Shown one piece after another: positions 20,155 to 45,111 of a stretch of DNA of 64,000 bases; the first letter of the stretch is position 1, and each line of letters starts with the position of its first letter. The notes beneath the pieces are model-generated. The model made no database searches and had not been told where the DNA came from. It saw nothing but the letters and a program-made list of their open reading frames with translations. The stretch is from Candidatus Poribacteria bacterium (lineage in GTDB: Bacteria; Poribacteria; WGA-4E; PCPOR2b): the NCBI GenBank assembly GCA_965116925.1, contig OZ220744.1, forward strand, positions 5,088,001 through 5,152,000, written 5' to 3'. The position numbers were made by a program, and so were the translations under genes.

Positions 20155-20236
20155 TGCGTAACGAGTAACGCGTAAGATTGTTTCTTTACGCATTACGTAT
20201 TATGTGTTCGGGATTCAAAGCAGTCTGCGGTTGATT

Positions 20237-20343
20237 TATAGTGAATTTAAAAAATAAATAGACGCTTTCGCCCCCATGTTTGGTAGGTGCTGTTTCCAAC
20301 TGCGCCGGTTTTGACTGTCTCATTAATTCTCAGGTCCACTATA
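20237..20343. mobile_element. IS630-related MITE
   Basis: Ends TATAGTGAATTTAAAAAATAAATAGAC...TGTCTCATTAATTCTCAGGTCCACTATA, flanked by TA; ends resemble the IS630 at 49264-50173; near-identical copy at 61824-61931. Confidence 0.75.
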
Positions 20344-20383
20344 AGTCACTAAAGGCTTATTCTCTACTTAGGGAGGGAAAGTT

Positions 20384-20620: not shown

Positions 20621-20753
20621 GTTCTGTTGAGAAAGTAGTAGGCACACTCCGTGTGCCGTAACTCTGCGAACAAGTTCCTGACATCGCTCGTTCATCGTGT
20701 CCCATTAATTCTAAAATCTACTATAAATGACCCTAAGATAAAGGAAAAAAGTG

Positions 20754-20782
20754 TTGACAACGCTAGGTTGATGTGAAACAAT
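20754..20782 (+). promoter_or_regulatory. Sigma70 promoter for structured leader copy 1
   Basis: TTGACA-N17-AACAAT with extended TG; equivalent promoter precedes copy 2. Confidence 0.55.
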
Positions 20783-20820
20783 AGAAAATTGGGACTGCTA
20801 AGCAAAGCTTAACAGCCCCA

Positions 20821-21037
20821 GTGGGGACTCCGAGTTAGTGGCTCGAAACCCCCCGAAGCAAAACGAGATACAGGCTCGAATCGCTTCATGATTGACAGGT
20901 GAACCAACACCTGACAATCTTTAATAGTATAACCCTTTATGCCAATCGTTTCGATCTAAAACAGAAGGGCTGCGCGATTCGGGTATTTCCGACGCTGCAG
21001 CCCTTTTTTATTTTAGGTCGTTTCGATGGCAACAAGG
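20821..21037 (+). ncRNA. Candidate structured leader RNA / attenuator, copy 1
   Basis: Homologous to 43228-43435 with compensatory stems: three hairpins, then a long hairpin containing a U-tract terminator and occluding the SD. Confidence 0.65.
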
Positions 21038-21045
21038 TATTGACT

Positions 21046-21138
21046 ATGTTAGCAACACAAAGGCGTTGGGTGTTGTTGATTTGTGCATCACTACTAGATG
21101 CTAAAGGGGGCGACAATTTTCGGTACAAAAGTTCATAG
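21046..21138 (+). CDS. Putative 30-aa leader peptide (MLATQRRWVLLICASLLDAKGGDNFRYKSS)
   Basis: ATG 8 nt after the AAGG that closes the leader hairpin, at the position where copy 2 has its gene start. Confidence 0.35.
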   Translation: MLATQRRWVLLICASLLDAKGGDNFRYKSS

Positions 21139-21447
21139 CTGGGGTGGGAGCGAGGGAGAATCCGGCGGGACAATCAGATATGATGGCTGGTGATCTAGCC
21201 GAAGCCGAAACAGCGACCGCGTTAGCCCTCAGCAGCCACCTTGACGCTAGCAATCTTGGGACGGTATAGGCAACTGCCCCTATAACGTCGGCAGTTCCTC
21301 TAAGTTGACAGTGACGGGGAAATAGGTGTTACCTTGAAAGCATTTCGTCCATACCTAAAGAAATATGAAATTGGCAGGGCTCGTGTGCAACCAGTTTTCT
21401 CCGAATCGTATTCTTAGTCATATTTTTTGCAAGCTAGGGAGGATTGG

Positions 21448-21732
21448 ATGAGCGACAAAAAAAATGACAACCCTTTGGGTTGCAAGCAAACTTGGGGGTT
21501 GATTAGTGCAGAGATGCTAAAAGCTCTCTTGGACAATCGTTTCTTGAGTGTGCCGTCAGCAGTATTTTTGTATCTCAGATTGAACGACGATGAGCATCTG
21601 AATTATCGAGAGGTGGCAGGGTGCCTCGGATTTCATGAAGCGAGTGTGTATCGAGCTGTCAAAGAACTTGCGGATGCTGGTCTTATTAAACGAAACAGAC
21701 GCGGGGACCTGAGTGCTTGCACCATTGATTGA
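21448..21732 (+). CDS. Small winged-HTH DNA-binding protein
   Basis: SD GGGAGG; LNYREVAGCLGFHEASVYRAVKELADAGLIKR HTH pattern. Confidence 0.75.
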   Translation: MSDKKNDNPLGCKQTWGLISAEMLKALLDNRFLSVPSAVFLYLRLNDDEHLNYREVAGCLGFHEASVYRAVKELADAGLIKRNRRGDLSACTID

Positions 21733-21933: not shown

Positions 21934-23201
21934 TCATTCACCCATCTGTCGAATCGCTTCCTCATAGATCTCCCTGAGCGGCACTCCATGTTGTTCAGCA
22001 AGCCGCTTGCAATCTTCATATTCGGGGACTGTTTTAATTAATTGGCCCTCCAAATATCCGCACTTCGCACGAACGGTTCCCCATTGCGTCTGGATGTCAA
22101 CAAAATCACGAGTCAGTTTGGATCGTTCGACAGTATAGGATCTGATGCCAAATGTCGTCGTTTCTAGGAGAAGCATTTCGCTCAATATATCACGGAGGGA
22201 CGGTGTACAAAGGAGGCTCAGTTTCGTCGCCGGACGGCCTTTCTTCATGAATATCGGCGTCATGAAGACATCGAGAGCACCCCGCTCAAAGAGTTGCTCC
22301 ATCAGGTAGCCTACAATCTCTGGCGACATATCGTCGAGGTTAGTTTCAATTACGCAGACCTGATCACCCTCGATAGTTTTTTTTTACCGACACACAGCCG
22401 CAAGAGGTTCGGTTGCTCCTCAAGGTCGCGTGTGCCGGCACCATAGCCAATTTGGTTGATGGTCATCTCTGGCATTGTACCGAATCCATCCGCAAGCGTC
22501 GTGATAATGGCTGCGCCGGTGGGGGTCACGAGCTCTTTTCGGATTTCGGTCTGTCGGACGGGCACGCCGCGCAACAACTCCATCGTCCCCGGTGCGGGGA
22601 CAGGCATGAATCCGTGGGCGCACCGAACAAAACCGCCGCCGAGCGATAGTGGAGAGGCATAAATCTCATCGACTGCTAGCAGATGTAGCCCAATAACAGC
22701 TCCAACGATGTCCACAATCGCATCAATGCCGCTGACTTCGTGCAGATGCACCTGATCTTTAGAAGTGTTGTGAACTTTCGCTTCCGCCGCTGCCAGTCGA
22801 TCAAAGATCTGCTTTGCGCGATCAATGATTACTGCATCAAGATCGCTATTGTCCAAGACGGCAAAAATATCGGACAGGTGACGGCTTGGACCGTGTGTGT
22901 GCGGGTGATCATGATGTTCGTGGCTATGGTCATGATCATGGTCGTGGGTGTGATGGTGATGTGCTGCTGGGGAATCGTTGTGGACGTGTGAATCTCCAGT
23001 CGAATCCTCTGTTTCCACGACCGCCCATGTGCCACTGATGCTGTGTTTCGTGGCTTCCTCGAAACGCAGCGTAAATTCGTCCAACTTCAACTTTGCCAAC
23101 TCTCCATTCAGTGCGTCCGGATCGACGCCTGCATTGACCAAGGCACCAAGCACCATATCTCCACTTATACCTGAGAAACAATCGAAATAAGCGATCTTCA
23201 A
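21934..23201 (-). CDS. larC: Nickel-pincer cofactor nickel insertase LarC, split by a -1 frameshift at A9C
   Basis: YFDCFSGISGDM, His-rich stretch, HLHEVSGIDAIVDI, ELVTPTGAA in ORF1; the -1 frame continues IETNLDDMSPE...MKKGRP...ETTTFGIR...PEYEDC. Confidence 0.92.
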
Positions 23202-43193: not shown

Positions 43194-43222
43194 TTGACAG
43201 CATTCTAAATATAATATAGGAT
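43194..43222 (+). promoter_or_regulatory. Sigma70 promoter for structured leader copy 2
   Basis: TTGACA-N17-TAGGAT with an A-rich UP element; the motif starts about 6 nt downstream. Confidence 0.7.
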
Positions 43223-43227
43223 AGGAT

Positions 43228-43435
43228 GTGGGCTCCGAGTGCTCTCTCGAAGCCCACTGAAGCAAAACGAGTAGGAGCTCGAATCGCTTCGTGATTGTTA
43301 GACTGCAATCTAACAACCACTGATAGTATACACCCTTTACGCCGTTAGTTTCGATCTAAATAAAAAGGGGCTGCACGATTCGGGACCATCCGACCATGCA
43401 GCCCCCTTTTTTTAGGTCAACTAGCAGCTACAAGG
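43228..43435 (+). ncRNA. Candidate structured leader RNA / attenuator, copy 2
   Basis: Homologous to 20821-21037, with the same hairpin order and compensatory changes. Confidence 0.65.
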
Positions 43436-43446
43436 AAAGTAACAAC

Positions 43447-45111
43447 TTGAATAGAAAAACAGCAGATAGGATTTATCATCCAGAGCACGATTCCAGTCTC
43501 ACGCGAAGACAATTTATAGAACGATTTTCCACTGCGGGACTAGCTCTCAGCAGTTTAGGACTTTTAGGTTGCGATGTTGGAGATATAATGTCGCCGGTTC
43601 GTACGCCTACAGAGATTGATAGCGACGTGCCTGCTCTCATTATTGGCAGTGGATTTGGAGGCGCGGTAACAGCCTTGAGATTGGGGCAAGCGGGTATCCC
43701 GACGATGGTCTTAGAACGAGGCAAACGCTGGAATAGCGCATCTGCACCGTTTAGTCCTAATTTCCCGCCTGACGGTCGTTCAACGTGGTTACGCAACAAA
43801 ACGGTTTTGCCGTTCGGTCCATCATTGCCTATCGGGAAATATACAGGGGTCTTGGACCGTGTGGATTACCCGAACATGAATGTCTATCGAGGGGCAGCTG
43901 TCGGTGGCGGCTCCATTGTATACGGTGGGGTTAGCCTGCAACCCCCTGAAGATCTTTTCTATCAGATTTTTCCGAGCAGTATCTCCTATCAAGAACTGCT
44001 GCCCTATTATGAACGCGTCCGCCACATACTGAATATCACGACGGTTCCCGCAGACATCGAAGCACAACCCCACTACGATTACACCCGCGTATTTACCCAA
44101 CTCGTAAACCAGGCCGGGATAGACACCATAAAGCTCGGGCAAGCCACGGATTGGGATATTGTCCGCGCTGAGATTGATGGCACGCGCCCACCGTCTGCTA
44201 TTATCGGCGAAGCAGCTTATGGCGGTAATAGCGGATACAAAAATTCTCTCGATAAAAACTATCTACCGATGGCGGAAGCGACAGGGTATGTCCGTATCCA
44301 TCCACTGCATCGCGTTATCGACATCACAACAGAAAACAGCGGTAAATATGTTGTAACAGTTGAGCAGATTGATGAGACGGGCGAGGTAATACAGACGAAA
44401 AAAATTGCCACGACTTACCTCTTTCTCGCTGCCGGCTCTATAGGCACGACAGAGTTGCTCGTAAAAGCCCGCGAGCTCGGCAATTTGCCAAATCTCAACA
44501 ACGCAGTTGGGCACGGATGGGGGACGAATGGGAGTCTCTTATTTAGCACGGGTGTGGGTATAGAAACTGGAAAGCAGCAAGGCGGCCCGCTCATCATAGC
44601 TATTTTAGATCGTGAGAATACAGAGTCTCCCGCGTTCATTAACCCCCCTTTCTTCCCTGTAGGTGTGGAATGTAGGTGTTTAATGCTTTATATGAACGCT
44701 CTACAAACCGAGCGCGGGCATTTTGTCTACGATACAGCCACCCACAGGGCGGAATTGATGTGGCCCGCCGGAGGTCACGACCGCGCTGCATATGCAGCAG
44801 CAGATTTCGTCGAGCGTTTGAACGCTGTCAATAAGGGTCAACTTGGTCTATCAGCAGGGATCCCAGCAGACCTTCCCATCAGTCCACCTGATCTCATTGA
44901 AGATATTACATTTACCCCTTTGGGTGGAATGGTGATGGACAAAGCTTGTGATTTGTATGGAAGGGTACACGGCTATCCCAAAATGTATGTAATGGACGGT
45001 TCTGCGTTACCCGGTTCGTGTGCCGCCGCCCCTCCGTCGTTGACGATTGCGGCGTTAGCCGAGCGCAACATAGAAACCATTCTCGCAGAGGATTTTGCCT
45101 CCACAGGTTAG
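43447..45111 (+). CDS. GMC oxidoreductase, cholesterol oxidase (class I)-like, Tat lipoprotein
   Basis: TRRQFI twin-arginine signal, LLGC lipobox, IGSGFGGAVTALRL FAD motif, SLDKNYL, WGTNG, TIAALAERN; TTG start after AAGGA. Confidence 0.85.
   Translation: MNRKTADRIYHPEHDSSLTRRQFIERFSTAGLALSSLGLLGCDVGDIMSPVRTPTEIDSDVPALIIGSGFGGAVTALRLGQAGIPTMVLERGKRWNSASAPFSPNFPPDGRSTWLRNKTVLPFGPSLPIGKYTGVLDRVDYPNMNVYRGAAVGGGSIVYGGVSLQPPEDLFYQIFPSSISYQELLPYYERVRHILNITTVPADIEAQPHYDYTRVFTQLVNQAGIDTIKLGQATDWDIVRAEIDGTRPPSAIIGEAAYGGNSGYKNSLDKNYLPMAEATGYVRIHPLHRVIDITTENSGKYVVTVEQIDETGEVIQTKKIATTYLFLAAGSIGTTELLVKARELGNLPNLNNAVGHGWGTNGSLLFSTGVGIETGKQQGGPLIIAILDRENTESPAFINPPFFPVGVECRCLMLYMNALQTERGHFVYDTATHRAELMWPAGGHDRAAYAAADFVERLNAVNKGQLGLSAGIPADLPISPPDLIEDITFTPLGGMVMDKACDLYGRVHGYPKMYVMDGSALPGSCAAAPPSLTIAALAERNIETILAEDFASTG

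Follow-up and report, generated by a model that had tools for sequence, protein, structure and literature searches.

A multi-copy leader module of Poribacteria as a candidate countertranscript-driven attenuator of exported-protein operons

What kind of RNA, if any, is encoded by a structured non-coding module of about 215 nt that occurs twice in one stretch of a poribacterial chromosome? Here, we analysed 64,000 nucleotides of a Candidatus Poribacteria bacterium (assembly GCA_965116925.1, contig OZ220744.1, positions 5,088,001 to 5,152,000; hereafter the window, to which positions refer unless a contig or locus is named). The original prediction held that the module is present in two copies, each behind a TTGACA promoter and in front of unrelated genes, and that it represents a functional RNA family matching no known riboswitch or T-box. 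Both copies, with the arms described, are present at 20821-21037 and 43228-43435, and a promoter of this type indeed precedes each of them (Table 1). Copies A and B share 74.5% identity over 200 nt (blastn, E 1.7e-25), and none of 200 shuffles was as stable as their sense-strand folds (z = -9.0 and -7.6, respectively).

The copy number of two, however, turned out to be too low, since the same genome contains five strong copies (A, B and those at C1:4237896, 4235443 and 2773580), a divergent one at 2776479 and two partial ones, at 2775185 and, as a 3' half, at 2220340. In a DNA search the element was matched in 17 of 19 Poribacteria genomes of the same genus and in 0 of 21 others, with up to about 12 copies per genome. 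A search of related genomes with a minus-strand covariance model gave matches in 30 of 151 genomes of the phylum, including 17 of the 19 of the genus; two further genera contributed four strong matches (G090, G099, G126, G139), and the matches elsewhere were degenerate. The exact hairpin-2 pattern was found at 63 loci in GTDB genome contigs, 61 of them titled Poribacteria, at 2 loci in metagenomes and at none in viral contigs, and the 4 matches not titled Poribacteria were discarded as chance, as they reach only 15 bits for hairpin 2. The plasmid sequences searched with the element gave no match. An Rfam 15 scan, covering the C4-type and Poribacteria motifs held in that release, returned no family for the module: nothing in the window reached the gathering level but a tRNA elsewhere, two chance rows fell around copy A (E 0.12 and 2.5), and 12 related loci gave 0 matches at E 0.5. 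Our literature search, outside which lay supplementary motif catalogues and subscription papers that could hold the element, found no paper on it. For the comparison, 84 full-length copies were reduced to 73 at 95% identity (mean 70%) and then, by removal of one with a long insertion, to the 72 non-redundant copies of alignments A2 and A3; one copy without a recognised terminator had been excluded earlier. As the copies are kin, the counts given below overstate independence.

The nature of the module is indicated by the conserved AGTATA, which reads TATACT on the opposite strand. Thus ATAGTATA, originally regarded as a conserved RNA element, is instead, as judged from the aligned copies, the -10 box of a predicted minus-strand promoter. 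A sigma70 -10 box is defined by its T, A and last T, and TAnnnT is found in 70 of the 72 copies (TATACT in 65; TAAAAT, TATAAT, TAAACT, TATATT and TACAAT in one each). A -35 box of the TTGAAA/TCGAAA/TTGACA type is placed 17-18 bp from it, again in 70 copies (boxes among the 72: TTGAAA 45, TCGAAA 10, TTGACA 7, TAGAAA 4, others 6). The spacer is 17 bp long in 65 copies and 18 bp in 7, and the distances flanking the promoter vary (8-40 nt and 10-16 nt). Two exceptional copies, in which both boxes are lost, form one clade. The consensus scan reports the antisense promoter in both window copies; an equally strict, family-derived pattern fits 66 of the 72 copies and has 281 genome-wide occurrences (0.022 per kb per strand). 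The 5' strand of the outer stem contains the antisense promoter, which points against the sense promoter. Transcription from it is predicted to begin at the base of hairpin 3 or, in copies lacking that hairpin, at the base of hairpin 2. An internal sense promoter using hairpin 3 was ruled out, as the spacing varies. On the sense side, a strict TTGACA-17-TAGRAT-type pattern is present in 41 of 80 family copies, several of the misses having near variants.

Which strand the hairpins belong to was assessed from their mismatches, since a mismatched A·C becomes a paired G·U on the complementary strand; the pairing routine used was strand-neutral. On the plus strand, A·C cells outnumber G·U cells in hairpin 1 (123 vs 8) and hairpin 2 (114 vs 4), hairpin 3 is nearly neutral (13 vs 7), and in the 3' stem the ratio is 159 vs 358. 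When changes were counted on the tree, A·C:G·U was 64:12 in hairpin 1, 15:8 in hairpin 2, 2:18 in the terminator and 14:76 in the outer stem, so that the polarity reverses at the antisense promoter. The 5' part is more stable on the minus strand in 71 of 72 copies and the 3' part in just 10 of 72; for the 5' part this advantage amounts to -10.4 kcal/mol, compared to -2.3 in shuffles (24 of the 72 copies tested). In the minus-strand structure 95.3% of cells are paired (37-50% in slid controls) and double changes occur at 18 of 33 pairs, which none of 500 shuffles reached; for plus-strand hairpins 1-2 the paired fraction is 79.3%, with two internal-loop positions counted in. Hairpin 3 is absent or reduced in 9 of 72 copies. 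Because of this strand polarity, the minus-strand folding and the covariation, the structured RNA appears to be chiefly an antisense RNA of about 70-135 nt: hairpins 1-3 would belong chiefly to it, and the 3' part chiefly to the sense leader. Thus, the claim of a functional RNA family holds in so far as the module is real, covarying and functional-looking, but not as a single RNA of unknown kind, since we consider it very probable that the module comprises two overlapping RNAs, a sense/antisense pair.

The predicted antisense RNAs of copies A and B fold at -70.9 kcal/mol (z -9.3) and -51.4 kcal/mol (z -9.0), respectively. An additional hairpin, H0, is found solely in copies of the A type and likely marks, by its terminator-like make-up, the 3' end of the copy A antisense RNA; a minus-strand terminator occurs in the A type only, and 13 of 72 copies have at least 5 U in the 10 nt after hairpin 1. 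The expression material consisted of four RNA runs, available as contigs only and unusable as strand evidence. In runs X1 and X4 cover is absent at 20737-20803 and begins at 20810 with a contig that crosses the terminator, and in run X5 a short contig of another copy (~20850-20944) has a depth of 11,158 compared to 169 for the long one; these contigs carry neither strand nor ends.

In its 3' part, the leader contains a GGGCUGC/GCAGCCC stem followed by a U tract, enclosed in an outer stem that reaches and pairs the ribosome site and that shows covariation. This U-tract terminator precedes the start codon and is retained in the aligned copies; the consensus scan missed it because its loop is longer than 8 nt. 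Median pairing of the ribosome site is 0.97 in the free ensemble and falls to 0.66 when the antiterminator is forced. The candidate antiterminator strand is the 3' arm of hairpin 2, which pairs with the terminator loop in 93.9% of cells, compared to 14-51% when slid, its covariation being weak (double changes at 3 pairs; 24 of 500 shuffles). Among the 65 class I copies, 47-48 form the antiterminator in chains cut just past the loop (0.74 for copy A and 0.01 for copy B, compared to 0.03 for shuffled loops), and it is unpredicted in 17-18. Class II (7 copies, one clade) is devoid of it, and its loop is of another, seemingly inverted kind; only two of all copies pair the 5' arm with p >0.5. The terminator is the favoured structure at equilibrium in 67 of 72 copies, and in 72 of 72 when the antisense-covered region is blocked; therefore the switch would have to be kinetic. 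Considering the chain predictions, the equilibrium results and the class II exceptions together, the modelled 3' arm of hairpin 2 is likely an antiterminator, although not a universal one. Two other candidates were discarded. A leader peptide over hairpins 1-3 was ruled out by inspection, as 6- or 7-nt loops shift the frame. GTTRRRY/RYYYAAC arms are the motif of integron attC sites, and similar arms occur in hairpin 3 of some copies; attC was ruled out since hairpin 3 is optional and in copy A has no such arms.

Table 1. Positions of the module parts and adjoining reading frames of copies A and B in the window (H1 to H3, hairpins 1 to 3).
Feature	Positions	Strand	Remarks
Copy A sense promoter, TTGACA-17-AACAAT	20754..20782	+	start ~20789; consensus scan
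Copy A extra hairpin H0	20790..20820	-	14 pairs, tail ATTTTCTATT; terminator-like on minus strand
Copy A predicted antisense RNA, ~134 nt, H3-H2-H1-H0	20786..20919	-	predicted ends
Copy A hairpin 1	20823..20853	.	12 full pairs on minus strand; A·C mismatches on plus strand; 7-nt variable loop
Copy A hairpin 2	20855..20887	.	3' arm 20875-20884 is predicted antiterminator (pre-emptor) strand
Copy A hairpin 3	20890..20919	.	optional; antisense RNA 5' end
Copy A antisense promoter	20926..20954	-	TCGAAA (20954-20949)-17-TATACT (20931-20926)
Copy A long 3' stem	20933..21037	+	outer stem pairs ribosome site, encloses terminator
Copy A intrinsic terminator, GGGCTGC/GCAGCCC + U6	20967..21009	+	fold; loop 20974-20983 complementary to hairpin 2 3' arm
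30-codon ORF after copy A	21046..21138	+	resembles start of common secreted-peptide family
Copy B sense promoter, TTGACA-17-TAGGAT	43194..43222	+	consensus scan
Copy B predicted antisense RNA, ~93 nt to hairpin 1 base	43226..43318	-	predicted ends
Copy B hairpins 1 (43228-43257), 2 (43259-43290), 3 (43291-43320)	43228..43320	.	
Copy B antisense promoter, TCGAAA-18-TATACT	43325..43354	-	
Copy B long 3' stem	43334..43436	+	holds terminator (43367-43413); AAGGA ribosome site paired
Copy B regulated gene, 554-aa GMC oxidoreductase	43447..45111	+	best match cholesterol oxidase, below family cut-off

Comparison of the copies gives convergent promoters, strand polarity, a terminator, the complementarity and the gene context; from these we infer transcription of the antisense RNA, a kissing step, termination and a trigger, and propose that each copy is probably a countertranscript-driven attenuator. 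A sigma70-type promoter would drive a leader composed of hairpin 1, hairpin 2, the optional hairpin 3 and the terminator within the outer stem, followed by an exported-protein operon, and the opposite promoter in the 5' strand of the outer stem would give the 70-135-nt antisense RNA over hairpins 3, 2 and 1. When the antisense RNA is absent, the weak sense hairpin 2 would open and its 3' arm would pair with the terminator loop, which is thus captured before the terminator 3' arm has been made, and the polymerase would read through. When it is present, it would kiss the two 6-7-nt loops and pair with the leader, masking the hairpin 2 3' arm, so that the terminator may form, the outer stem also hiding the ribosome site. 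The trigger would probably be the balance of the two convergent promoters.

The same sense/antisense pair could also function mainly after or beside termination, with the antisense RNA leading to hiding of the ribosome site as in pSK41, to duplex decay by RNase III as with type I antitoxins, or to promoter interference. This would fit the covarying pairing of the ribosome site by the outer stem (median 0.97) and the missing good antiterminator in copy B and class II, and both pSK41 RNAI and RnaG act partly in this way according to the accessible parts of the sources cited below. However, the terminator is kept together with its U tract, and its loop is complementary to hairpin 2 in most copies; moreover, of the 7 copies with A at column 70, 6 have U opposite it (3 events), the lone mismatch copy being without an antisense promoter. 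We thus consider such a mode of action unlikely.

In the attenuator that we favour the loops would be the points of first contact. Among the 72 copies there are 35 kinds of hairpin 1 loop and 44 kinds of hairpin 2 loop, and the length is nevertheless 6-7 nt in 71 of 72 and 72 of 72 copies, respectively; both loops are identical in just 5 of 214 within-genome copy pairs, and the upper stems are conserved across the family. Variable loops of fixed length suit kissing loops, in which any change would be mirrored on both strands. U-turn enrichment was not seen, as YUNR occurs in any of the four loops in 33 of 72 copies. In pIP501, two loop pairs are reportedly needed. Loop variation does not prove copy specificity; in pT181 chimeras, as far as the accessible part of the report goes, orthogonality is not set by the loop alone (PMC3753616).

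The genes behind the element are not unrelated when the whole family is considered, contrary to the original prediction: an ORF of at least 60 aa is found at the ribosome site in 58 of 72 copies, and 52 of these 58 first ORFs have a hydrophobic N-terminus, compared to 25% of 3,424 background ORFs. The usual cassette encodes a small, often Cys-rich protein and then an N-anchored partner, and arrays of cassettes, spaced by 2-3 kb and each with its own element, are common. In the 42 cassettes picked from 93 loci, the listed first ORFs are 62-206 aa long and have signal-like leaders (11 of the 42 listed end in GG, GGG or GGGG), 34 partners form one family and 27 partners have a C-terminal YG-EEGLRRL motif. 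A protein search yielded 239 relatives of the partner protein (ORF2), which matched neither a Pfam nor an NCBIfam family and gave no usable Atlas match; the cassette proteins tested hit 0 Pfam families at E 0.001. A model of the partner (pLDDT 75.8) gave no Foldseek match at E 0.001, and its best VIA match was a 62-residue helical piece (Z 6.3); we also considered a role as a foldase or STI1-like protein, for which there is no support. Three partner genes of the same genome stand in tandem without the element (G000:C1 2832425-2836276), a small peptide gene preceding the first. The copy B oxidoreductase has, by sequence inspection, a twin-arginine-like leader, and its upstream element is present in all 6 genomes with the gene, of 29 family genomes.

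Copy A is different in that the 30-codon ORF following it is probably, from its sequence, a decayed member of a secreted-peptide family, and its orthologues L017, L029 and L030 are likewise without an intact ORF. The 14 of 72 copies without an ORF of at least 60 aa at the ribosome site, and the retention of both promoters and all hairpins by copy A and its three orthologues despite the decayed ORF, could mean that the minus-strand product acts mainly in trans on targets elsewhere, as a small RNA or a protein decoy, and that orphans are kept for this; the stems, too, are conserved beyond the need of cis pairing alone. However, the loops, which are usually the targeting parts, are freely variable, and in the copy A orthologues the element and the gene next to it are conserved to much the same degree (95 vs 93% and 89 vs 92% identity), so that recent ORF decay explains the orphans. 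We therefore regard a mainly trans-acting RNA as very unlikely. An extension of our preferred attenuator is that each copy has its own loop code, so that cassettes switch separately, possibly bistably via convergent transcription, which would lead to cell-to-cell variation in export, with orphans such as A tuning matching copies in trans; we put this forward tentatively, as a rather unlikely elaboration. Copy A is also followed, after about 390 nt, by a gene for a 101-aa helix-turn-helix protein (21427-21732, +), with 92-93% DNA identity beside L017 and L029, and read-through from copy A could in reality serve this gene. Further on, two ORFs (21934-22329 and 22350-23201, -) together make up a LarC-type nickel-insertion gene, matching Pfam positions 1-236 and 255-375; larC is known to occur as a split gene.

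A riboswitch or protein-bound leader, in which sense hairpins 1 and 2 would recognise a ligand or protein and set the terminator against the antiterminator, would also explain these two structures and the common class of downstream genes, and the repeated CGAG/CUCG stems could bind a dimeric protein. Hairpins 1 and 2, however, are optimised for the minus strand (123 A·C vs 8 G·U and 114 vs 4), the loops are unconserved, Rfam gives no match, and the fixed 17-18-bp promoter would be left unexplained. As neither a sense aptamer, nor conserved loops, nor metabolically coherent genes, by which a riboswitch is recognised, were found in the family, we hold such a leader for scarcely likely, and the view that the module matches no riboswitch or T-box is borne out. 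A selfish MITE/REP-like repeat, with palindromes devoid of a regulatory role, would fit the multiple copies (up to ~12 per genome) and the patchy occurrence beyond one genus, but it is barely credible given that the copies range from 50 to 95% identity and show compensatory changes, that two promoters, a terminator and a ribosome site stand in constant order and face exported-protein genes, and that a G·U/A·C polarity is unexpected for DNA palindromes. In the one search for an empty site, the element was present in each of the 6 genomes with the copy B gene.

The proposed attenuator has close parallels on plasmids. As described in the accessible part of PMC5703833, the 87-nt counter-transcript of pT181 pairs with the repC leader so that a terminator holding the ribosome site forms, this stem being otherwise blocked by a pre-emptor; pIP501 RNAIII/repR acts like pT181, and the antisense RNAI of pSK41 induces a stem masking the ribosome site. 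Like pT181 RNAI/repC and pIP501, in so far as they are covered there, the Poribacteria element has a predicted short, structured antisense RNA from a convergent promoter that is complementary to the 5' leader, a terminator before the start codon with the ribosome site in its stem, and a candidate pre-emptor. Unlike them, it is chromosomal and multi-copy and targets exported proteins, with no rep gene or origin found adjacent, and its predicted pre-emptor pairs with the terminator loop, whereas that of pT181 pairs with the 5' arm. With no rep gene, plasmid or Rfam sequence kinship found, the element stands outside the plasmid copy-control family proper; it is not an undescribed class either, because its working principle matches that of plasmid countertranscript attenuators.

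Convergent promoters and an antisense RNA that favours the terminator are also described, in the accessible part of PMC3181467, for Anti-Q/prgQ of pCF10, where sense transcription titrates Anti-Q and thereby switches the output. The element shares with this system, so far as that text goes, the convergent promoters and an antisense RNA proposed to favour the leader terminator; unlike pCF10, it has many variable copies, and neither a PrgX-like repressor gene on the antisense strand nor a pheromone system or conjugation genes were found. Shigella RnaG, according to the accessible part of PMC2879508, combines antisense attenuation with promoter interference at icsA, a cell-surface protein gene in a Gram-negative host, and its antisense region has three stem-loops, as does the element, for which antisense attenuation is likewise proposed. 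RnaG, however, is 450 nt long, single-copy and plasmid-borne, in contrast to a chromosomal family of ~100 nt. Type I toxin-antitoxin systems employ a cis antisense RNA against a structured mRNA (PMC4152353, accessible part). As far as these sources go, the element resembles them in this respect, and pSK41 RNAI in the stem hiding the ribosome site; it differs from type I systems, which encode short membrane toxins, by its 62-206-aa proteins with signal-like leaders, by the partner gene or enzymes, and by a terminator that precedes the ORF. Chromosomal repeats are known among type I systems (ldr/rdl, ibs/sib).

Antisense-driven attenuation has been described mainly for plasmid genes, and the accessible part of a 2014 review (PMC4152353) states that no such case had been observed among sRNAs encoded on the chromosome in low-GC Gram-positive bacteria. 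If our proposal is true, the mechanism would extend to a chromosomal family that reaches up to about a dozen copies per genome and precedes variable exported Cys-rich proteins, and these exported proteins of an uncultured sponge symbiont would be tightly controlled candidates for interaction with the host or neighbours. Since both promoters are near the E. coli consensus, the switch is testable without culturing the organism. Synthetic biology needs larger sets of orthogonal attenuators, as the accessible part of PMC3753616 states, and dozens of natural loop variants are available here for such sets.

Several minor observations were made at related loci. The peptides encoded by L002 7123-7536 and L003 6455-6874, at distant loci, have near-identical C-terminal two thirds and different N-terminal parts, and this mosaic suggests, at the sequence level, recombination or gene conversion between cassettes. 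A 320-aa exported protein has about 45 paralogues, many in tandem, at G000:C1 2590296-2607412 and in other arrays; they are related to the gene that follows the element in L090 and, by sequence inspection, are what we take to be TolB-like proteins. At L182 (G049, another genus) there is a compact variant with a promoter, hairpin 1 and terminator and no clear antisense promoter; its hairpin 2 is truncated and has a 5' arm complementary to the terminator loop GTGCTTCA. In L001, L008, L011, L013, L015 and L016, a variable palindrome of 24-30 bp, showing compensatory changes, lies about 30 nt before the sense -35 box. Finally, short repeats at ~20200-20345 and 20630-20736 of the window, which are missing in some relatives, draw many unrelated contigs of the RNA runs and are probably local MITE/REP elements.
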